Below are positions 1-12,216 of a DNA stretch of 12,629 bases, piece by piece; position 1 is the first letter of the stretch; every line of letters begins with the position of its first letter. This DNA is from an uncultured Deinococcales bacterium (GTDB taxonomy: Bacteria; Deinococcota; Deinococci; Deinococcales; JAAFIG01), in NCBI GenBank assembly GCA_964247135.1, contig CAXTTL010000141.1, positions 1 through 12,629 on the forward strand, in the 5' to 3' direction. The translations under genes were made by a program, and so were the position numbers. The notes under the pieces are model-generated. The model searched no databases. It was not told the DNA's origin and worked only from the letters and a program-made list of their open reading frames with translations.

Positions 1-53
1 TCGGTTGTATCCTAAACTTGATAATCAATAATAATCACTGTGGTCATGCACTA
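1..53 (+). mobile_element. Right end of a probable IS630-family insertion sequence (transposase C-terminus, terminal repeat and TA target), truncated by the window edge
   Basis: Frame 2 (2..31) reads RLYPKLDNQ*, matching the C-terminal signature of many IS630 transposases (WQFTxxDARIKLxRLYP). It is followed within ~20 bp by ...GTGGTCATGCAC-TA-G, the CACTAG-type end typical of IS630 elements, which duplicate TA. Only 9 codons are visible. Confidence 0.65.
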
Positions 54-509
54 GTGCAAAAATTGGACGATACAACGTTTTACAGAAAGCATTTTCTACC
101 TATTTTGCAAGGTTTAAAAGCAGTTGACTTCCTTGCATTTGATCCTAAAAAATCAGAATTGTGGTTGATTGAGGTCAAAGACTATCGTGCTCACAGACGA
201 ACAAAAAAGATTGATTTGGTTGATGAAATTGCGCAGAAAGTATTGTCAAGTTTGTCTTGTTTAATTGCAATGAGAGCCAATGCTAACGTGCAAGAAGAAA
301 AAATCTTTGCTGAAGAAGCCATAAAAAAAGCTCGATTAAAAGTTGTGGTTCATCTCGAGCAGCCAGAAAAGCCTAGCAAATTGCGCCCAACAGTTTATGA
401 TCCGACCAATTTGCGTATCAAATTACGCGAGAAAGTCAGGTCAATTGATTCAAAAGCGGAATTCTCGAGCATCGTATTTTGCGGAAATGTGCCTTGGATA
501 GCCTCTTAA
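54..509 (+). CDS. PD-(D/E)xK nuclease-like hypothetical protein, probably 5'-truncated by the IS630 insertion (possible pseudogene)
   Basis: ORF track gives 18..509, but the TTG at 18 lies inside the putative IS. Native-looking sequence starts at about 52 (GTG at 54). Motif AVDF...LWLIEVKDY fits the D...E-x-K catalytic pattern. Visibly more AT-rich than neighbouring genes. Confidence 0.6.
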   Translation: MQKLDDTTFYRKHFLPILQGLKAVDFLAFDPKKSELWLIEVKDYRAHRRTKKIDLVDEIAQKVLSSLSCLIAMRANANVQEEKIFAEEAIKKARLKVVVHLEQPEKPSKLRPTVYDPTNLRIKLREKVRSIDSKAEFSSIVFCGNVPWIAS

Positions 510-3218: not shown

Positions 3219-4319
3219 GTGACGGAGTTCTTAAAAATGCTTGGCGTTTCTGGTTCGCTCGAGGCTGGGCTGTTTCCAGTGATCGCCATTTTTATCACCG
3301 CCATTTTGGTGACCTGGTTTTTTGTGCCCAGGGTGCGCGGTTTTGCGGTTGAAAAGGGTTTGGGTGACAAGCCCAACGAACGGCGTTTGAACAAAGAAAT
3401 CTTGCCAAACTTGGGTGGTTTGACGGTCTTTGCGGGCGTGATCGCGGCGCTGATCGTGGCAACGGCGCTCAAGTCACAAATTTTGGCAACCGTCAATGTC
3501 CAAGTGCTGGCGATCATTCTGGGCGGTGCAATTTTGGTCTTGATCGGTTTTATCGACGATCAATTCGAGTTGCCCAGCATGTTTAGACTTGGTGTTCAAT
3601 TTTTGTGTGCGGGTTTGCTGGTCGTGAACGGCATTCGCATTGACATCACGTTTTTGCCAACTTGGGCGGACACCGCGCTGACCTTATTCTGGATTGTCGG
3701 CATCACCAACGCCGTCAATCTTCTGGATGGCATCGACGGCAACGTTGGCGGTTTGGGCTTTATCAGTTCCATCTGCCTGCTCGCCCTCAGCGCTCAATTC
3801 TCAACTCGAGCTGCCGCCACCTTGATTCTGGCGGCGTTGGCTGGGGCTTGCCTCGGGTTTTTGCGGCACAATTTTAATCCCTCGAGAATCATTCTCGGTG
3901 ACGCGGGCGCGACTTTTATCGGGTACACGCTGGCTGCCGTGTCTGTCTTGGGTACGGTGAAGATTGCGGCGTTCGCCAGCTTGCTCGCGCCCGTGGTGAT
4001 TTTGCTGGTGCCGATCATCGACACCACCCAAGTCGTGGTGAAACGCATCATGCGCGGGGTGCGCCCCGACACCCCAGGCAAAGACCATTTGCATCATTTG
4101 CTGTTAAAACGCGGTTTTGACCAGCGCCGCAGCGTGCTGATTTTGTGGGGCGCAACCTTATTCCTAAACGTGGTCGGCATGGTCTTGCAACATGCCAGAC
4201 CCATTGTCATTATTGTGACCGTGTTTGGTGTGGTCGTGATGCTGGCATTTGTCGCGCAGGTGCGACTTCGAGAGGTCAAACTCGAGGCTCAAAAAGCGCT
4301 CGCCAATTCAAATTCTTAA
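3219..4319 (+). CDS. wecA: Undecaprenyl-phosphate GlcNAc-1-phosphate transferase (WecA/TagO type, MraY superfamily)
   Basis: Multi-pass membrane protein with PNLGG, IGFIDD, GITNAVNLLDGIDG, NFNPSRIILGDAGA and the HLHH motif typical of WecA/TagO; adjacent to wecB. Confidence 0.9.
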   Translation: MTEFLKMLGVSGSLEAGLFPVIAIFITAILVTWFFVPRVRGFAVEKGLGDKPNERRLNKEILPNLGGLTVFAGVIAALIVATALKSQILATVNVQVLAIILGGAILVLIGFIDDQFELPSMFRLGVQFLCAGLLVVNGIRIDITFLPTWADTALTLFWIVGITNAVNLLDGIDGNVGGLGFISSICLLALSAQFSTRAAATLILAALAGACLGFLRHNFNPSRIILGDAGATFIGYTLAAVSVLGTVKIAAFASLLAPVVILLVPIIDTTQVVVKRIMRGVRPDTPGKDHLHHLLLKRGFDQRRSVLILWGATLFLNVVGMVLQHARPIVIIVTVFGVVVMLAFVAQVRLREVKLEAQKALANSNS

Positions 4320-4346
4320 ACTCGAGTTTTCAAGGAGTGTGAAGGT

Positions 4347-5471
4347 ATTAGCCAGTTAAAACGTGTGGTGGTGGCGTTTGGAACGCGTCCAGAGGCGATC
4401 AAGATGGCTCCGGTGATTTTGGCGCTGCGCCAAAATCCGATGCTCGAGGTGAAGGTCTTAAGCACGGGTCAGCAGCGTCAACAGGTCGAGGATGGCTTGA
4501 AGATTTTTAGCATTGTGCCAGATAACGATTTGCAGGTCATGACCGAGCGTCAAACCCTGCCAGGTTTGATGGGCAAAATCGTGCCTGCCGCCGCCGATAA
4601 ACTCCGCGAACTGAACGCCGATTATGTTTTGGTTCACGGCGATACCCTGACCTCGTTTGCGGTGGCGCTGGCGGCTTTTTTCGAGCAAATCCCTGTCGCC
4701 CACGTCGAGGCTGGGCTGCGTTCGGGCAGTCTGCGCGAACCCTTCCCAGAGGAAGCCAACCGCAAACTGACCAGCGTCATTACCGATCTGGACTTACCGC
4801 CAACCAGGGGTTCAGCCGAAAACCTGTACAAAGAGGGCAAGGGCAGCTCGAGTGTGGTGGTGACAGGTCAAACCGAGGTCGATGCGGTCTTGTTCGCCAG
4901 CACCAGGGGGGTAGCGCCCGAACTTCCAGCAGGCAAGCGAATTGTGACCGTGACCATGCACCGCCGCGAGAACCTGCCCGTGATGCGCGAACTCGCCGCC
5001 GCTTTGGGCAAGGTTGCCAGTGCGCACCCCGACACGCATTTTGTGATTCCAGTCCATTTAAATCCAGCCGTGCGCGAAGCCATTTACCCAGAACTCGAGC
5101 ACATTGGGAATTTCAGTTTGCTCGAGCCGCTCGAGTTTGGCGCGATGGCGGCACTGATGGCACGCTCGAGTTTGCTGGTCACCGATTCTGGCGGGGTGCA
5201 AGAGAGCGGCGCGACTTTGGGTGTGCCTGTGGTGGTGCTTCGCAACGTCACCGAACGTCCAGAGGGTTTGGTGGCGGGCGTCCTGAAACTGGCTGGAACG
5301 ACGGGCGATGGCGTATTCAAGACCGTCAATCAATTGCTCTCGAGCGAGGAGGCTTTGAACGCCATGCGCGGCAAACCAAACCCTTACGGCGATGGTCATG
5401 CCTCGAGCCGCGTGGCGCAGGCGGTGGCGTGGAAGTTGGGGCTTGGGGAGCGTCCGAGCGATTGGCAGTAA
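4347..5471 (+). CDS. wecB: UDP-N-acetylglucosamine 2-epimerase (non-hydrolysing)
   Basis: [60 protein letters not shown]. First canonical start is GTG 4365, but the SD AAGGAG (4332-4337) points to ATT at 4347. Confidence 0.95.
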
Positions 5472-5507: not shown

Positions 5508-5544
5508 AAAAAACCTCGAGAGACATTTGATCGTCTCTCGGGTT
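5508..5544 (-). terminator. Intrinsic terminator of the peptide-lipoprotein operon (possibly also used by wecB)
   Basis: AACC(T)CGAGAGAC (5512-5524) / GTCTCTCGGGTT (5533-5544), 8-nt loop; the A-run at 5508-5513 gives a U-tail on the minus strand. Confidence 0.75.
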
Positions 5545-5568: not shown

Positions 5569-6777
5569 TTATGGAAGTACGTCAACATCCAAAGTGGTTG
5601 AAGTGGTCGTGGTTGAGTCGGTTAAATCCACGCTGATCGTGTGCGGACTTCCGACAGGGGTGGCAGCAAGGTAAGTGTGGCTGGCAGCGATAGGAGTTGC
5701 TGTCAATGTGACGCCAGTAAACGAATCTGCGGCAGTTGCATCGTCCCAGTCAACCGTAATGTCTGTGACAGATGTACCGGCGGCTGCCCTGTAGGTGATG
5801 TTCAGCGGGTAATTCACATTGGCGTTGGCAGTTGTGCTGTTGGCACTGATGTCCACAAAAGGGCTGACATCGCACGAAATGCTGAGCAAACAAACTGGGC
5901 TTGTGCTGGTCAACACGTTCCAAACTCGAGTTGTTGTAAACGCCACATTGGCAACGTCTGAGTCATTTCCAGCCAAATAAACGTCGTCTGCGGTGACGGC
6001 AGCGGCTCGAGTATTGGCGTCGGCAGTCGTATCACCAAGTCCACGGCTGACTCGGGTGTTGGTGTCGTCTGCGATCACAAAGTCTGCTTTGAATTTGTAG
6101 GCGGAGTTGACGTTTGCATTTGGCAGTTTGTAGGCAATGGTGATGGTGCCCGTACCGCCTGCCACGAAGACCCGACCGCCAGTGCTGTTGCGGGCAACAA
6201 AGCCGTATTGCAAGATGGTGTCGCCTGCGGCGATGGTGCTGGGAATCAGGGCAGTTGCTTCGGTGGTGACTTGAGCTATTTCATCCAGTGTAAAACCTTG
6301 AAAATCGGCGTTGGAATTGTCAATGGTGTAACCAAAAATCGGAAAGCCAGTATAGATGGTTTTATGGATGGGCAGCAGGCTTTGGGCGTTGCTGCCGCTT
6401 GCGCCACCATTAAAATTGATCATGCTTTCGATGGCTGTTCCACCAATGCCAGTGCCAAGTTTGTTGTAGGCGTGTAAGGTTAAATTGCTGAAAGGGATAT
6501 TGGCGGTCACTGGAAAGGTCGCGCTGAGGAAGCGGTTGCCGCTGCCAGCGTCAACATAATCCACAAAAGTTGGTGTGCCAAACGTCACAGCAGTGTCTGC
6601 CACGGCAGCACGGGGTGAAAAGTGGGTGCTCGAGCTTCCAGCATCCGCGCCAATGCCCAGTGATACCGTGCCAATAACCTTGCTCGAGGGGGCTGGGTTG
6701 GTGTTCAGGCTTGGGTTTTGAGAGCACGAGACAGCCAGAAAAAGTGGAAGAATCCAAGCAACGTTTTTGAAATTCAT
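5569..6777 (-). CDS. Putative surface lipoprotein, Thr/Ala/Gly-rich and predicted beta-rich, with a C-terminal PKD/Ig-like domain
   Basis: Signal peptide MNFKNVAWILPLFLAVS-C with a lipobox-like Cys18, then a Pro/Ser/Asn tether. C-terminal VDWDD...ASHTY...G.HTISVDLTD resembles PKD (WDFGDG...HTY...GxYxVxLTV). SD AAAGGAG at 6786-6792; ATGA overlap with the upstream peptide gene. Confidence 0.8.
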   Translation of the reverse strand: MNFKNVAWILPLFLAVSCSQNPSLNTNPAPSSKVIGTVSLGIGADAGSSSTHFSPRAAVADTAVTFGTPTFVDYVDAGSGNRFLSATFPVTANIPFSNLTLHAYNKLGTGIGGTAIESMINFNGGASGSNAQSLLPIHKTIYTGFPIFGYTIDNSNADFQGFTLDEIAQVTTEATALIPSTIAAGDTILQYGFVARNSTGGRVFVAGGTGTITIAYKLPNANVNSAYKFKADFVIADDTNTRVSRGLGDTTADANTRAAAVTADDVYLAGNDSDVANVAFTTTRVWNVLTSTSPVCLLSISCDVSPFVDISANSTTANANVNYPLNITYRAAAGTSVTDITVDWDDATAADSFTGVTLTATPIAASHTYLAATPVGSPHTISVDLTDSTTTTSTTLDVDVLP

Positions 6778-6971
6778 ATTCCAAGCTCCTTTGGATCGAG
6801 ACTGACCGAATCGTCCAAAATGGAAGGGAACGGTTGGACCATGCCGATTGAAAGCCCAATGCCGGCGGTCAGAGAGCTGTAGTCCCCGTGGACCTCGAGT
6901 TTGGGGGTTTGATACGGTTTTTGTTCGAGGAGCGCGGTTGAATTGAGTACATCAGATGTTTTGCTTTTCAT
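6774..6971 (-). CDS. 65-aa peptide with a lasso-type RiPP leader motif (orphan precursor-like)
   Basis: Strong SD AAAGGAG (6977-6983) 5 nt before ATG; stop overlaps the next start (ATGA). Contains YQTPKLEVHGDYSSLTA|G = YxxPxLxxxGxxxxxTx|G. Confidence 0.8.
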   Translation of the reverse strand: MKSKTSDVLNSTALLEQKPYQTPKLEVHGDYSSLTAGIGLSIGMVQPFPSILDDSVSLDPKELGI

Positions 6972-7069
6972 GGTAACTCCTTTACAAAAAATTTGAATTG
7001 TGATGATGTTATACGTTTTGACGCTTTTGTTTTTAAGTCTTCCCTAACCAAATTGCTCACACAGTTCTA

Positions 7070-7109
7070 ATTATAACGTGAAGAATTGAAAATAAGCTGA
7101 ATTTTCAGC
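7070..7109 (-). promoter_or_regulatory. Putative promoter of the peptide-lipoprotein operon with an upstream palindromic binding site
   Basis: Consensus TATAAT at 7075-7070, no good -35, and palindrome GCTGAA-N2-TTCAGC at 7096-7109. Confidence 0.5.
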
Positions 7110-7287
7110 CACTTTATCTTTTGTAAGCGACATCGTTCAGAACGCTTGAACTCGGTATAAAAAATAACAATGCACAGCGCTTTCAAAAGGATATTTTGCT
7201 ATTATTTATGCTCGAGTCAAAATAGAACGTGTGGGCAATTTTCGTGTCGTTTTGATTTTGCAGGCGGTGGCGAAGATTAACAAAAAC

Positions 7288-9087
7288 TCAAATGATAGCC
7301 TCGAGTTCATTCACCATGTTTTTTAAAACTTCAAAACCGCGCTGCACGGGTTCTGGGCTGTTCATGTCAATGCCAGCCAATTTCAGGGCATCAATCGGAT
7401 ACCTCGAGCTGCCGGTTTTCAAAAAATCGATATAGCGTTTGGCGGCGGGTTCACCCTCGGTCAACACATCTGTTGCCAGCGCATTGGCGGCGGCAATTCC
7501 CGTGGCATATTGATACACGTAAAATGGCGAATACAAATGCCCAAAGTTCATCCAACACGAACCCAGACGGGTTGCATCAATGTTTACCGAACCGCCGTAA
7601 CCTTCACCAAACAATTCGACCAAACGTTCGCTCAAAAACGGGGCATTGATCGAACCGCCGCGCTCGACTCGCTCGTACATTTCACGCTCGAGCTTTGCAA
7701 GGGTCGGCATGACAAACAAATAGCGGTGAAAATTCGAGAATGCCTCCTCGAGCAGCGCCAGTTTCGCGGTTTTGTCGGTTGCCGATTTTAACAGGTCACT
7801 GCGCACCATCGCCTGATTGAAATTGCTGGCGACCTCGGCAACGAACATGCTGTAATCGGTGTAAATGGCGGGTTGGGTGGTGTTGCTAAAGTACGAGTGC
7901 ATCGAATGCCCCAACTCGTGCGCCAAGGTTGAAAGCGAGTAGAGGTCGTCCGTCCAGCTCATAAAAATAAACGGATGCGTCCCCTGAGCGCCACTCGAGT
8001 ACGCGCCCGCGCCCTTGCCCTGATTCGGACCCCAATCGACCCAGCGTTGCTCGAGCAAACCTTTGCGCATGGGGTCGATGTACTCCGCGCCGAGCGGTTC
8101 CATGCCCTTCAGGATCAAATGCGAAGCCTCGAGAAACGTAACTTTGGTGCTTGGCACGAGCGGCGCTGGAGATTCGTAAATCGGTGCGTCGCTGGTGTGC
8201 AAAGCCCCGTTCATGGCTTGCTTGCGAAGCCGCCAATACTTGTGCCAGAGGGGCTGATACTCTTTGAACGTCTCGAGCAGATTTTCATAGACCCGCAGCG
8301 GTATGTGGTTTCGCGCCAAACTCATTTCCAAACTCGAGCCGTAATTTCTGGCTCGCGCCTTAAACACATAAGCCTTCACGCTGGCTTGCAAGGTTGCCGC
8401 CAGCGTATTTTGAAACGCCAAATGACCGTCGGCGTAAGCTTCAAAAGCCGCTCGACGCACGTCGGCGTTGGTGTCTGAAAGATACTCCCCGACGCTCGAG
8501 TGTGAAACTTCGACCTCAACGCCGTCGCGCAAAATCGGCTCAAATTTCATGTCGGCATCGTTCACCGCGCTCGAGATGCTGTACGCAGCCCCGAGCGGAT
8601 CGCTGGCTTGCGCCAAGAGCATCTCGACCTCAAAGCTGCGCACATGATCGCGCTCGGAGCGCAACTCTTCAAAATAATGACGGTACATTTCAAGCTTGGG
8701 TTCGTCACGCACAAATTGCTCGAGTTTTGCGTCTTCAAAAGCCAGCAACTCTGGACCAAAAAATGCCGCCGCGCCAGACAATTGTGCCCCAGCCGAGGCA
8801 ATCTCGGCATTCATGCTCGAGTAGGTCGTGTTCGTGCCCTCGATTGACGCCAGCAAACTGGCGTACATGCTGATCTTGTAAGCCTCCATGAAAATGCGGT
8901 CACGAAGCGCCAAAGCCTCAAACAAAACCGTACCAGATTCGCCCAGGCGTCCAGCGTACTTGGAAATTTCGCTTGCAGAGGCTGGAAGTGTCTCGAGGGC
9001 TTGGCGCCACTCGGTTTCGTTCGCAAAGACGGTTTCGACACTCCAGGTTTTGGCTTTTTCGACTTCACTGCGTTTGGGTAAGCTCAT
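7288..9087 (-). CDS. pepF: Oligoendopeptidase F (M3B zinc metallopeptidase)
   Basis: 599 aa; GKGAGAYS, TLAHELGHSMH (HEXXH), FVAEVAS, H..FYVYQYATG, GSSRYPIDALKLAGIDM. Confidence 0.95.
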   Translation of the reverse strand: MSLPKRSEVEKAKTWSVETVFANETEWRQALETLPASASEISKYAGRLGESGTVLFEALALRDRIFMEAYKISMYASLLASIEGTNTTYSSMNAEIASAGAQLSGAAAFFGPELLAFEDAKLEQFVRDEPKLEMYRHYFEELRSERDHVRSFEVEMLLAQASDPLGAAYSISSAVNDADMKFEPILRDGVEVEVSHSSVGEYLSDTNADVRRAAFEAYADGHLAFQNTLAATLQASVKAYVFKARARNYGSSLEMSLARNHIPLRVYENLLETFKEYQPLWHKYWRLRKQAMNGALHTSDAPIYESPAPLVPSTKVTFLEASHLILKGMEPLGAEYIDPMRKGLLEQRWVDWGPNQGKGAGAYSSGAQGTHPFIFMSWTDDLYSLSTLAHELGHSMHSYFSNTTQPAIYTDYSMFVAEVASNFNQAMVRSDLLKSATDKTAKLALLEEAFSNFHRYLFVMPTLAKLEREMYERVERGGSINAPFLSERLVELFGEGYGGSVNIDATRLGSCWMNFGHLYSPFYVYQYATGIAAANALATDVLTEGEPAAKRYIDFLKTGSSRYPIDALKLAGIDMNSPEPVQRGFEVLKNMVNELEAII

Positions 9088-9093
9088 AGGCTC

Positions 9094-9099
9094 AGTTTA
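9094..9099 (-). promoter_or_regulatory. -10 element for a leaderless pepF transcript
   Basis: TAAACT ends 6 nt before ATG 9087; no SD. Confidence 0.6.
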
Positions 9100-9162
9100 C
9101 AAAATTTAAGTTTTACAAGTTGTCGCAGAATTGCAACGCTGGCTCGAGGTCTAAATTTTGGT

Positions 9163-9999
9163 TTACTTCAAAGCACCGAGCGTCAAGCCTTCGCGCCAGT
9201 AACGTTGCAGCAAAACAAACACGATTAAAAGCGGCACAAACGAAATAAATGTTGCGGTGATAATCGTGGTGTAACTGAATTTCTCGCCCAGTGCGGCGGT
9301 CGAATTCCAAACTTCCAAACCCACAGTCGTTGGGAACAATTCGGTTTTTGAGAGCACCACCAGCGGTAAGAAAAAATTATTCCAGGTTTCGACAAAAGCA
9401 AACAAACCGACGGTGACAAGTCCGTTTCGCACGAGTGGCAAACCGATTCTCGAGAAGACCTGCCATTCGTTCGCGCCGTCCAAGTACGCGGCATCCATCA
9501 GTTCGTTCGGGAAACCTTGCGTCCAGAAGATGGTCATGAGGTACACGCCAAACGGGTTGACCAGTGCGGGCAGGATAAAACCAAGCTGCGTGTCGTTCAG
9601 TCCAAAACGGTTGACGAGCAAAAAAATCGGCAGCACCAACGCCGAGAAGGGCATCAGAACACCGCCCAGAATTGCCAGGTACAAAAAGCGTTTGAAAGGG
9701 AATTCGTGCTTGGCAAACGCGTAACCGCCCATCGCGCAGAGCAGCGTCGAACCCAGCGCGACGACGCTCGAGTACAGCACGGAATTCCAAAGCCAGGTGG
9801 ACACGATGCCGTTTTGGTAGGCGAAAGCCGCGCGAAGATTCTCGAAAAAATGTACTGGAAAAGACGGCAGCAAACCGAACGAGTCAAACAGTTGCCCGTT
9901 GTCTTTGGTCATCGAAACGACCAGCCAGTACAAGGGCAGCATAAAGTACGCCAAGCACAACAAAATCAGCAGGCTCGAGATTTCAATTTTGGGTTTCAT
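9163..9999 (-). CDS. Carbohydrate ABC transporter permease (MalG-like, CUT1)
   Basis: Hydrophobic helices; EAA loop ELMDAAYLDGANEWQVFSRIGLP; WNNFFLPL; ATGA overlap with the upstream permease. Confidence 0.93.
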   Translation of the reverse strand: MKPKIEISSLLILLCLAYFMLPLYWLVVSMTKDNGQLFDSFGLLPSFPVHFFENLRAAFAYQNGIVSTWLWNSVLYSSVVALGSTLLCAMGGYAFAKHEFPFKRFLYLAILGGVLMPFSALVLPIFLLVNRFGLNDTQLGFILPALVNPFGVYLMTIFWTQGFPNELMDAAYLDGANEWQVFSRIGLPLVRNGLVTVGLFAFVETWNNFFLPLVVLSKTELFPTTVGLEVWNSTAALGEKFSYTTIITATFISFVPLLIVFVLLQRYWREGLTLGALK

Positions 10000-10856
10000 G
10001 CGCGTCCCCGTTGATGGTTAATGATGGTTAAGAACACGCTCGAGAGTCCAAAGGTCAGGATGGCGACGATCACGGACAGCGCGGCGGCGTAATTGAAATT
10101 GCCGTAACCAAACGCGTTCGAGTAAATGTAAAGGTTCGGCGAAAGGTTGGTGGGGATGAACGACAAGGATTTTAAAACGAATGGTTCGCTAAAGATTTGC
10201 AGCACACCAATCACGGCAAACATCAGGGTCAGCGACAGGGTTGGCATCAAAAGCGGTAATTTTAAGAACCTTACGACCTGCACCGCGTTCGCGCCGTCCA
10301 CAGTCGCGGCTTCGTACAATTCGGGCGGAATGGATTTTAAACTCGAGGCGAGAATGATCGTGTTGTACCCCGTCCACGTCCAGGTAAAAATGTTACCGAT
10401 GGCAAACAGCAAGTGGTCAGCGCTGAGAAACTCGAAGTTCAGTCCAAACCAAGCCAGGATGTCGTTGAATGGACTGAGGCTTTTGGAGTACAAATACCCC
10501 CACATCAAACCGCTGACCACGCCAGGCAGCGCATAAGGCAAGAACACACTCGCGGTAAAAACCTTCGCCAGCCGCGATTCTCGAGCATCCAAGTACAACG
10601 CGAACGAGAGCGCCAACAGCAGCATGATCGGGATTTGCAAGGCACCAAAACGGGCGATGGTCTCAAGAGACTCAATAAATTGCGCGTCGCTGAGTGCCCG
10701 CACAAAGTTTTGCAAGCCAACAAAAACGGCTGGGTTTAAACCGCGTTGCACAAAAAAACTGAGGTACACGGCGTACAAGGTGGACACGAAGTAAAACAGT
10801 AGGTACAAGACCAAGAATGGCAGTAAAAACGCGAGTCCAACAAAACGTTTGGGCAT
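9996..10856 (-). CDS. Carbohydrate ABC transporter permease (MalF-like, CUT1)
   Basis: FVGLQNF, FLPYALP, EAA loop ELYEAATVDGA, GNFNYAAALS. Start moved from 10922 to ATG 10856 (AAGGA 8 nt upstream; removes the overlap with the binding-protein gene). ATG 10865 is an alternative. Confidence 0.93.
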   Translation of the reverse strand: MPKRFVGLAFLLPFLVLYLLFYFVSTLYAVYLSFFVQRGLNPAVFVGLQNFVRALSDAQFIESLETIARFGALQIPIMLLLALSFALYLDARESRLAKVFTASVFLPYALPGVVSGLMWGYLYSKSLSPFNDILAWFGLNFEFLSADHLLFAIGNIFTWTWTGYNTIILASSLKSIPPELYEAATVDGANAVQVVRFLKLPLLMPTLSLTLMFAVIGVLQIFSEPFVLKSLSFIPTNLSPNLYIYSNAFGYGNFNYAAALSVIVAILTFGLSSVFLTIINHQRGRA

Positions 10857-10884
10857 CAGTGACATCCTTGGCGCGGCTCGAGTC

Positions 10885-12216
10885 TTATTTTTCGGTGACG
10901 GTAAAACCTTGCGCCTGGGCATAGGTCAGCACCTCGGATTGCCAATGCTCGAGCGCCTGATCCCAGGTGATTTTCTTGGCAATGGCATCGGCGAGGTGCT
11001 TGTTGAAATTGTCATTGGCAAACAAAAACCACGGCGACCAGATAAAATTCGTGTCCACGTGTCGGCTCGCCTCGAGGTACGCCCCCGCGACGTTCATGCC
11101 AAAGAATTTGTTCGGGTCAAGCTTCGGGTCTTGCAACTCGGGCAGCGTTAAACCGGCTTTGGCGGCAGGAAACACGCCTTGTTTCACCCAGTTGATTTTG
11201 ATGGCATTCGGATGCGTCATCATCCAGGCGGCGAAGATCGTGGCGGCTTGCGGCTCTTTGGATTGTGTGGTCACCGCGTAAGCCGTTCCGCCCCAGTTGC
11301 CGGTGGTAAATTTGCCCATGCCCGCCCATTGTGGTATCGGTGCGACCCGCCATTTGCCAGCCGTTTTTTTGGACAACGAACTGGCGATTGACCCTGGTCC
11401 CCAAGCCGCTTCGATGCTCGAGATGATGCTGTCATTGCCGAGGGCTTTGTAAAAGTCGAGGGTGAAATCTTGGAAGCTTGAAACATAACCTTTTTCAATC
11501 ATCTTGCCCCAGTAATTCAGCACGGTTTTGGCTTTGGGATTGTTTAAATTTTGTGTCCAAGCCTCGCCGTTTTTGCTCCAGAAATGTCCACCGTATGCCC
11601 AGACCAAACCCATGTACCACGGCGCATAGGTCGAGAAGAAATTGGCAATCTTGACTTTGTTGTTCGTGGCTTTGGAAAGCTTAACGGCATTGGCTTCAAA
11701 TTCTGACCAGGTTTTGGGCACTTTCAGACCGTATTTTTTGTACAGGTCGGCGCGGTACACGAGTGCCAGCGGTCCTTGATCGCCAGGAATTCCCCAAACA
11801 CTTTTTCCGTCCGGCGAAACTTGGCGCCAAGCCCATTCTGGGTAGAGACTTTTGAAATCATTCGCGCCGTACTGAGCCAGGTCTGTAAGACCGCCGAACG
11901 CGATAAAACTGGGCAGGAAGCCGTATTCGATGGCTGCCACGTCGGGCGCCCCAGTGCCGGCTTTTAAGGCGGTCAGCAGCTTGTTGTACTCGTCAGGACC
12001 CGCGCCGACGTTTGACAATTGAACCTTGATGTTTGGGAAATCTTTGTTGAACGCCGCAATCACCGCGCCGCTCGAGCCGCCCCAATCCCAAAGTTTTAAG
12101 GTCACGTTTTTGCTGAAACTCGGGTATTTTGGCGCGTTCGCCGCTTTTTGACCAAACGCAAGCAAAGACCCTGTGACCGCCGCAATCAAACTTATAAGCA
12201 ACAAAGTTTTTCTCAT
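10885..12216 (-). CDS. Sugar ABC transporter substrate-binding protein (family 1)
   Basis: Signal peptide without a lipobox Cys; TLKLWDW, GAPDV, YRADL..KYGL.VPKTWSEF, GKWRVAPIPQW, GNWGG. SD AAGGAG at 12224-12229. Confidence 0.93.
   Translation of the reverse strand: MRKTLLLISLIAAVTGSLLAFGQKAANAPKYPSFSKNVTLKLWDWGGSSGAVIAAFNKDFPNIKVQLSNVGAGPDEYNKLLTALKAGTGAPDVAAIEYGFLPSFIAFGGLTDLAQYGANDFKSLYPEWAWRQVSPDGKSVWGIPGDQGPLALVYRADLYKKYGLKVPKTWSEFEANAVKLSKATNNKVKIANFFSTYAPWYMGLVWAYGGHFWSKNGEAWTQNLNNPKAKTVLNYWGKMIEKGYVSSFQDFTLDFYKALGNDSIISSIEAAWGPGSIASSLSKKTAGKWRVAPIPQWAGMGKFTTGNWGGTAYAVTTQSKEPQAATIFAAWMMTHPNAIKINWVKQGVFPAAKAGLTLPELQDPKLDPNKFFGMNVAGAYLEASRHVDTNFIWSPWFLFANDNFNKHLADAIAKKITWDQALEHWQSEVLTYAQAQGFTVTEK

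Follow-up and report, generated by a model that had tools for sequence, protein, structure and literature searches.

Among described systems, the closest to the one presented here are the Linear Polyphosphorylated Peptides (LPPs), a family of Bacillota, including Paenibacillus alginolyticus, published by Popov et al. (Nat Commun, 20 May 2026, PMC13381572). The present analysis concerns a small open reading frame (ORF) at positions 6774-6971 of the minus strand of the window, by which we mean the whole stretch of 12,629 nucleotides that makes up contig CAXTTL010000141.1 (assembly GCA_964247135.1) of an uncultured Deinococcales bacterium. By analogy with the LPPs, and with a probability of about 0.6, this ORF would encode the precursor of a lasso-related pathway for peptides made by the ribosome and modified after translation (RiPPs) that has no cyclase, a Deinococcales counterpart of the system of Bacillota.

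According to the text of Popov et al., LPP precursors share the motif YxxPxVLxHQxIxFETxxS, and their clusters combine a discrete RiPP recognition element (RRE) named LppB, the HprK-like kinase LppK, the SipW-like leader peptidase LppS, an MsbA-like pump and an NTP-transferase; the clusters described there are without cyclase. LppK polyphosphorylates Ser3 of the core, and LppS cuts after Thr-1. Alongside LPP clusters there occur paeninodin-like lasso clusters with a WxxP motif in the leader: Tyr versus Trp is the key to the discrimination between the two, and PbaB1-like RREs disfavour Tyr leaders. The Discussion of that paper restricts LPPs and paeninodins to Bacillota, and its Supplementary Data 1-2 may list other groups; the final product and the biological role of LPPs are given in the text as unknown. 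In a second group of systems, the clusters of the paeninodin/pseudomycoidin type, the parts of PMC8498205 used here report that the nucleotidyltransferase is sometimes fused to the leader peptidase B2, and that the kinase acts on the linear precursor, at its C-terminal Ser.

A sequence-only reading that preceded this analysis had proposed that the peptide might represent an undescribed class. This does not stand, as far as the text of PMC13381572 describes them: LPPs, with a similar leader register and with an RRE, an HprK kinase and an NTP-transferase, were published in May 2026. On the other hand, literature searches on orphan lasso leaders, on HPr kinases together with PqqD and RRE, and on lasso peptides or RiPPs of Deinococcales found no description of the Deinococcales system.

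A conserved gene with a lasso-type leader

Translation confirms what had been reported of the peptide. When cleavage is placed after Ala36, Tyr20 falls at position -17, Pro23 at -14, Leu25 at -12, Gly29 at -8, Thr35 at -2 and Gly37 at +1; positions 7-9 of the core are Gly, Met and Val, that is, without Asp or Glu, the first acidic residue comes at +17, and the tail is acidic. The sequence-only reading had also taken the ORF for a real gene on account of its strong Shine-Dalgarno sequence and of an ATGA overlap and, judging from the conservation of the sequence, it is one; the overlap is that of its TGA stop with the ATG of a lipoprotein gene. An orthologue is present in 5/5 genomes of the same genus, with 68-78% identity, and a collection of 5.8 billion proteins contains 22 more homologues, with 65-87% identity, all of them unnamed or labeled "hypothetical". 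In the alignment of 20 homologues (A2), conservation is strong from Tyr20 to the C-terminus and residues 1-18 of the leader are variable; the conserved recognition stretch reads Tyr20-x-x-Pro23-x-Leu25-Glu26-x-His28 ... Thr35. With 15 pairs of six orthologues taken together, the summed ratio pN/pS is 0.19 within residues 19-65 versus 0.69 within residues 2-18.

The peptide, which has the pattern YxxPxLxxxGxxxxxTx, passes the NCBIfam model NF033521 (lasso_leader_L3), scoring 20.1 bits for a cut-off of 19, and gives a weak match to NF033528. It is the only sequence of the 5.09-Mb genome over the cut-off of NF033521, and none was found in the control genomes (0/14), which sets the motif above chance.

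A multicopy family with a common register

The peptide had been called an orphan, a description that no longer fits: it has paralogues, and its lipoprotein partner is a constant companion. A profile built from 25 family peptides (A3), with matches counted at E<=0.01, has 132 matches in 16/19 genomes of the Deinococcales family f1, at 2-16 copies per genome; it has no match in the f1 genomes G007, G008 and G010. Across 151 sampled genomes of the order, matches occur in 15/18 genomes of family f1 versus 2/132 others. These counts are a lower bound, because the profile misses divergent members in genus g7 that were recognised by eye.

The source genome, G000, has five peptide-lipoprotein cassettes, on contigs C141, C147, C154, C26 and C126. 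The four peptides other than that of the window are 45-80 amino acids long and share the stretch (P)YQTPxLE, with His at eight residues past the Tyr in 3/4 and Val in C126; three of their cassettes have the ATGA overlap, and one has a gap of 4 nt. At least five paralogous candidate precursors coupled to lipoproteins are encoded in this genome, the window peptide among them, so its role would be tied to a family of surface lipoproteins.

The scan of related genomes was a search for homologues that keep the motif, and such a family was found. Counting columns from the Tyr in 40 members, we observe Y1 in 39/40, P4 in 40/40, L6 in 39/40 and E7 in 40/40, then H9 in 25/40, T16 in 27/40 and S19 in 19/40. 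The register holds among paralogues that are 25-40% identical, and in three families of the order. In all of the 33 family peptides compared, the Thr is followed by a Ser at a distance of 3-6 residues, and 30/33 have cores without Asp or Glu at positions 7-9 under both of the cleavage rules considered below. No macrolactam is expected, because there is neither an acceptor Asp or Glu nor a requirement for a cyclase, and by analogy with the LPPs the peptides of the family probably stay linear.

Candidate enzymes encoded in trans

As the sequence-only reading had stated, no cyclase, B1, B2 or exporter was found in the window, by Pfam searches of its ORFs except the partial ORF 3-509(+). Its proposal of a trans-encoded, RRE-dependent pathway to a non-lasso product has gained support from the rest of the genome and, by linkage and co-occurrence, from related genomes. 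The genome-wide search for PqqD/RRE, B2 and cyclase genes returned a PqqD gene with an HprK-like neighbor on contig C14, a fusion of a nucleotidyltransferase (NTase) to B2 on contig C33 and, separately, a cluster with B1, B2 and cyclase on contig C32.

The C14 gene encodes a discrete PqqD/RRE protein (PF05402, 62.1 bits), and is overlapped by a 291-aa gene with a Walker A motif and an HPr-kinase-like P-loop, whose product shares 31% identity over 87 aa (E 3e-7) with the kinase-like protein of the C32 cluster. In phmmer comparisons, the C14 PqqD matches the Tyr-type RREs TbiB1 (8e-4), TfuB1 (2e-3) and LppB (9x8z, 0.026) better than it does PbaB1 (9x90, 0.82). In the alignment with LppB, N33 and D70 of the C14 PqqD stand opposite the two LppB residues which, in the text of PMC13381572, hold the kink at the Pro (N33) and the hydroxyl of the Tyr (D70); the numbering of LppB is the chain number minus 18, fixed by matching C39, F74, M78 and L83. 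From these sequence comparisons, the C14 PqqD is likely a Tyr-type RRE, and a candidate binder of the leader of the window peptide.

The C33 gene encodes a 449-aa fusion of NTP_transf_5 (PF14907, 80.6 bits) and lasso B2 (PF13471, 46.6 bits), which passes NF033537 with 42.2 bits for a cut-off of 33. In an alignment of seven B2 domains, the Cys and the His are invariant (7/7), while the third position is acidic, with D in 6 of the domains and E in 1.

The linkage of these genes is best seen in other genomes. Among the PqqD loci fetched, 16/17 have an overlapping or adjacent Walker A gene of 286-310 aa, at -5 to +26 nt. In G128, which belongs to another family of the order, a single strand carries, in this order, the PqqD gene, the HprK-like gene, a peptide, a 942-aa lipoprotein and three tail-collar genes. 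In two genomes of genus g7, G020 and G028, the peptide and lipoprotein genes diverge from the PqqD and HprK-like genes; in G036 the peptide adjoins the latter pair, and in G012 one gene separates that pair from a cassette. The NTase-B2 fusion adjoins the pair in G020, G011 and G006. Of six PqqD loci inspected outside f1, four have the peptide (G128, G020, G028, G036), and they come from two other families of the order. No cyclase was found at the linked loci of G128, G020, G028, G036, G011, G006 and G012. In G020, the linked system has as neighbors Hsp33, a solute-binding protein and an ORF resembling aminoglycoside adenylyltransferases.

In the 19 genomes of f1, peptide and PqqD are both present in 14 and both absent in 3, with 2 genomes having the peptide only and 0 the PqqD only; the NTase-B2 fusion has the same distribution against the peptide, with 14 genomes having both, 3 neither, 2 the peptide only and 0 the fusion only. 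In both genus g2 and genus g3, one genome has peptide, PqqD and NTase-B2, and one has none of the three.

A proposed pathway, compared with known systems

In the pathway that we propose, the stretch Tyr20-x-x-Pro23-x-Leu25 of the leader would bind the Tyr-type PqqD/RRE of C14, a step suggested by family membership, by the contact residues and by the linkage observed elsewhere. The RRE would then present the peptide to the HPr-kinase-like enzyme and, by analogy with LppK and the paeninodin kinases, a Ser near the junction of leader and core would be phosphorylated, probably Ser41. The B2 half of the C33 fusion would remove the leader, either after Ala36, following the rule of B2 that places Thr at -2, or after Thr35, following the rule of the LPPs; its nucleotidyltransferase half may decorate the phosphate. 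The product would be a peptide that is linear, modified and about 29 residues long.

The likeness to the LPPs, as far as these are described in the text of PMC13381572, lies first in the leader, which is lasso-like and of the Tyr type, with the register Y1, P4, hydrophobic 6, H9, T16 and S19 in the family, a register compared with the logo given in the text of that paper. The window peptide itself has Y1, P4, L6, H9 and T16, and its Ser is at 22, not 19. Both systems have genes for a discrete Tyr-type RRE, an HprK-like protein and an NTP-transferase; both are without cyclase, the product here being presumed linear by analogy; and both share a genome with a paeninodin-like lasso cluster whose leader is of the WxxP type, here C32.

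The two systems differ in several respects. The candidate peptidase is here a lasso B2 fused to an NTP-transferase, whereas the LPP peptidase is described as a SipW-like signal peptidase I (SpI), a difference that suggests that the system arose from a lasso cluster which lost its cyclase. No SpI of archaeal type (TIGR02228) was found over the cut-off in G000, G005, G011, G020 and G128, in a search in which nine control genomes matched, Bacillus subtilis among them, and four control genomes exceeded the cut-off; and no SipW-like peptidase was seen in the linked loci. No MsbA-like exporter was seen among the linked neighbors identified in G020, G128 and G028; the precursors are multicopy, with the 2-16 copies of each genome dispersed, and are translationally coupled to a lipoprotein; the position of the Ser varies, 3-6 residues after the Thr; and the phylum is Deinococcota. 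If our interpretation is correct, an LPP-like system would extend to a new bacterial group, the Deinococcales, in which the same split between Tyr and Trp separates it from a co-resident paeninodin-like lasso cluster. The tie between precursor and lipoprotein genes would then offer a concrete and testable handle on the purpose of such linear peptides.

With the clusters of the paeninodin/pseudomycoidin type, as presented in the parts of PMC8498205 used here, the system shares a B1 RRE, a B2, an HPr-kinase homologue and a nucleotidyltransferase, but it lacks a cyclase, an acceptor Asp or Glu and a C-terminal Ser, its leader is of the Tyr type rather than of the Trp type, and it has a lipoprotein partner. 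Canonical lasso precursors, as captured by NF033521, resemble the window peptide in that it passes their leader model and that a B1 RRE (the C14 PqqD) and a B2 domain (C33) are both available in trans; they differ in that its core cannot form a macrolactam. The case also shows that "orphan" ORFs with lasso leaders flagged by NF033521 need not be lasso peptides. Finally, HPr-rel-A (TIGR04352/TIGR04353) and SynChlorMet ScmC/ScmD recall the arrangement of C14, a small PqqD-family chaperone adjoining a P-loop HprK-related protein, but this is a comparison by model names only, and the matches are far below the cut-offs (for example, 31.6 bits versus 200).

Several observations weigh against the proposed pathway. 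The label HprK-like comes from these weak NCBIfam matches, together with the Walker A motif and the paralogy with the C32 protein. The first Ser of the window peptide is 6 residues past Thr35, not 3, and S19 itself is present in fewer than half of the members, at the count given above. At E<=0.01, NF033521 recognises 1/25 family members, the window peptide alone. In G025 and G039, a PqqD gene with an adjacent gene of about 300 aa was found and no such peptide was seen. Among peptide-bearing genomes, PqqD was not found in G002, which is 82% complete, nor in G013, and the NTase-B2 fusion was not found in G013 and G015; G013 has two copies of the peptide, one of them with a stop. The co-occurrence counts overstate the support that they lend, because related genomes are not independent. 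No exporter was found beside the linked system, where the neighbors are fully identified in G020 and partly in G128 and G028, and no genome-wide search for one was made; with no linked exporter, a product made in the cytoplasm would have no evident way to reach a lipoprotein that is exported.

The lipoprotein partner

The coupling of peptides to lipoproteins was counted by hmmsearch over the fetched loci and all of G000, a sample biased to the best matches. It contains 45 distinct peptides, of which 44 have room for a gene downstream. In 38/44, the next gene, at -1 to +47 nt, has a signal peptide and a lipobox, called by regular expression in 29 cases and by eye in 9 more (L/F-M-A-C box); of the remaining peptides, one precedes a gene whose box is atypical, and 5 have no gene of this kind behind them.

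In the window, the partner is a 402-aa protein whose residues 1-18 form a signal peptide with a lipobox ending at Cys18. It matches no Pfam or NCBIfam family, and has 35 homologues besides itself. The five partner lipoproteins of G000 give N-terminal BLASTP alignments over roughly 200-350 residues, at 25-42% identity, beyond which they diverge in length, from 402 to 1293 aa. This common N-terminal module (alignment A4, 32 rows) has an AlphaFold2 model with a pLDDT of 82.9. Folded alone, it has no Foldseek match in the PDB at E<=0.001; its best VIA match, 7dda_A (Z 6.3, rmsd 4.0, 119 aligned), is within the background stated for that tool, and the ESM Atlas has no usable match. With the model of the whole lipoprotein, Foldseek and VIA match the C-terminal PKD domain alone, for example 4tn9_A (Foldseek E 4.3e-5) and 2c4x_A (VIA Z 12.1).

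What stands behind the module varies: PKD (PF18911/PF00801), RCC1, a leishmanolysin-type M8 peptidase or FG-GAP in the homologues; cadherin-like and lamin-tail domains, or an ExeM/NucH nuclease, in the partner lipoproteins of relatives. The nuclease domain is found in genus g7, at positions 7308-11312 of locus L086 (G028:C4), where it scores 547 bits with NF033681, and its presence shows that enzymatic heads of various kinds are carried by the module.

With such a faithful partner, there is the possibility that the peptide is not a RiPP precursor, but a stoichiometric structural partner of the lipoprotein, its private chaperone or a subunit. The leader-like motif would then serve a protein-protein contact, and the PqqD-kinase pair would be a regulator or a quality control. 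This rival has in its favor the coupling in 38/44 assessable cassettes, with partners that share the N-terminal module, the conservation of the whole stretch 20-65 among orthologues rather than of the leader alone, the lack of a linked exporter, and the 24/25 family members that miss the lasso-leader model. However, the peptide has no signal sequence while its partner has an export signal; a B2-type peptidase domain, with Cys and His intact, co-occurs and clusters with the system; and the register Y1/P4/H9/T16/S19 resembles that of a RiPP family which, in the text of PMC13381572, is experimentally processed. We consider this explanation unlikely. A predicted complex of residues 19-300 of the lipoprotein with the peptide scored 0.00 in two runs, made without controls, and is evidence neither way.

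A more speculative extension of the RiPP interpretation, which we put forward as possible but doubtful, is that a RiPP machinery derived from lasso peptides (RRE, kinase and NTase-B2) has been repurposed in Deinococcales, the phosphorylated linear peptides acting each as the dedicated ligand, anchor or maturation factor of one surface lipoprotein. The N-terminal module, which has no recognised fold, would then carry interchangeable nuclease, protease, PKD, RCC1 and cadherin heads. If this is true, RiPPs would have a new role, as stoichiometric subunits or adaptors of cell-surface proteins, and the LPP family would receive its first functional clue.

In locus L072 (G128:C148), positions 6072-7634 hold three tandem genes of about 170 aa directly 3' of the partner lipoprotein: the first has a phage tail collar domain (PF07484, 97.7 bits), and the other two are alike at their N-termini.

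The lasso cluster of the same genome

Since the source genome has a paeninodin-like lasso cluster, on C32, the window peptide could be a spare substrate of that cluster, which would bind it, cleave it and perhaps close it into a ring in some unusual manner; its passing of the lasso-leader model, with Thr-2 and Gly+1, speaks for such a use. The cluster consists of a sulfotransferase, a B2 (NF033537, 81.7 bits), a B1, a cyclase and an HprK-like gene. However, directly 3' of the cyclase, at about C32:19690-19840, it has its own precursor, with a WxxPxV...DTS leader and an Asp at core position 9, and is for this reason not a likely partner of the window peptide; the same layout, with precursors in cis, recurs in G005 and G014. 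The only match of the C32 B1 is to PbaB1, a paeninodin-type RRE (9x90, E 1.3e-6), and such RREs are those that, in the text of PMC13381572, disfavour Tyr leaders. The cyclase frame of G000 (C32:17711-19615, or L009 9787-11643) has two in-frame stops, 1 TAG and 1 TAA, and is either a pseudogene or an assembly error.

The wider family points in the same direction. Besides the 30/33 cores without an acceptor at positions 7-9, no cyclase-like gene (NF033535, E<=1e-10) was found in 8/16 peptide-bearing genomes, including G011, which is a single contig with 7 copies of the peptide, G009, with 9 copies, and G017, with 12. On this genomic evidence, a cyclase is not required for the peptide system, and the use of the window peptide by the C32 cluster is quite improbable.

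It is hardly credible that the ORF is a mere coupling or regulatory upstream ORF, whose product has no function of its own: the ATGA overlap and the strong Shine-Dalgarno sequence would indeed drive coupled translation of the lipoprotein, but purifying selection acts on residues 19-65 at the amino-acid level (pN/pS 0.19), and the motif register persists in distant paralogues and in three of the order's families. The idea of a leader peptide that arrests the ribosome or is otherwise regulatory was likewise rejected, there being no N-terminal membrane segment and the conserved motif not being C-terminal.

The cassette and its surroundings

The features of the cassette are collected in Table 1. 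The terminator-like hairpin would close the two-gene unit; the consensus scan that found it returned 3 sites in all, versus 2.8 expected in shuffles, and a promoter scan gave nothing above shuffles.

Table 1 Features of the peptide-lipoprotein cassette, in window positions
Feature	Positions	Strand	Basis and remarks
Candidate precursor peptide gene, 65 aa	6774..6971	-	TGA stop 6774-6776; translation, NF033521, orthologues, pN/pS
Shine-Dalgarno sequence AAGGAG	6977..6982	-	5 nt 5' of peptide ATG; read from sequence
Putative leader, Met1-Ala36	6864..6971	-	Orthologue alignment A2, family column counts; putative cleavage site
Putative core, Gly37-Ile65, 29 aa	6777..6863	-	From translation
Lipoprotein gene, 402 aa	5569..6777	-	ATGA overlap with peptide stop; translationally coupled
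Lipoprotein N-terminal module, residues 19-300	5878..6723	-	Common to family partners; BLASTP, alignment A4
Lipoprotein C-terminal PKD-like domain, residues ~303-402	5572..5869	-	Foldseek and VIA; variable among paralogues
Terminator-like hairpin and T-run	5517..5540	-	29 nt past lipoprotein stop; consensus scan only

Pfam searches of 12 further ORFs of the window yielded these assignments: rhodanese, APH-like kinase, UPRTase, GT4, WecB, PepF, two importer permeases, a solute-binding protein and a LacI-type fragment. Back to back with the cassette, at 3219-5471 of the plus strand, lie a gene for a GT4/WecA-like glycosyl-1-phosphate transferase and wecB. The text of PMC13381572 places the LPP clusters of Bacilli in capsule loci.

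A search of public contigs with a DNA pattern for PYQTPKLE yielded 35 loci, which by our estimate is about the number expected by chance. Pairs of peptide and lipoprotein occur only in 13 records of metagenome-assembled genomes labeled "Deinococcales bacterium" or "Deinococcota bacterium". The remaining loci were rejected as family members: they lie in open frames with no relation to the family, in many cases within larger proteins. One such protein, of about 300 aa and unrelated to the family, is repeated in Chloroflexota, with tandem copies about 1 kb apart (L104, L111, L114 and L109 in Anaerolineales; L098, L106, L107, L117 and L121 in other Chloroflexota), and is a trap for searches based on the motif only.

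Peptides sharing a Y-x-K-P-S-L-E leader are found in L022, in L040 and at positions 22897-23112 of contig C16 of G000, none of them followed by a lipoprotein gene. Two of them end 4-6 residues past an A-G junction, and the one on C16 has a longer tail, rich in Pro and Asp; in L040 the next ORF is hydrophobic and 68 aa long. These peptides may form another small family, served by the same RRE.

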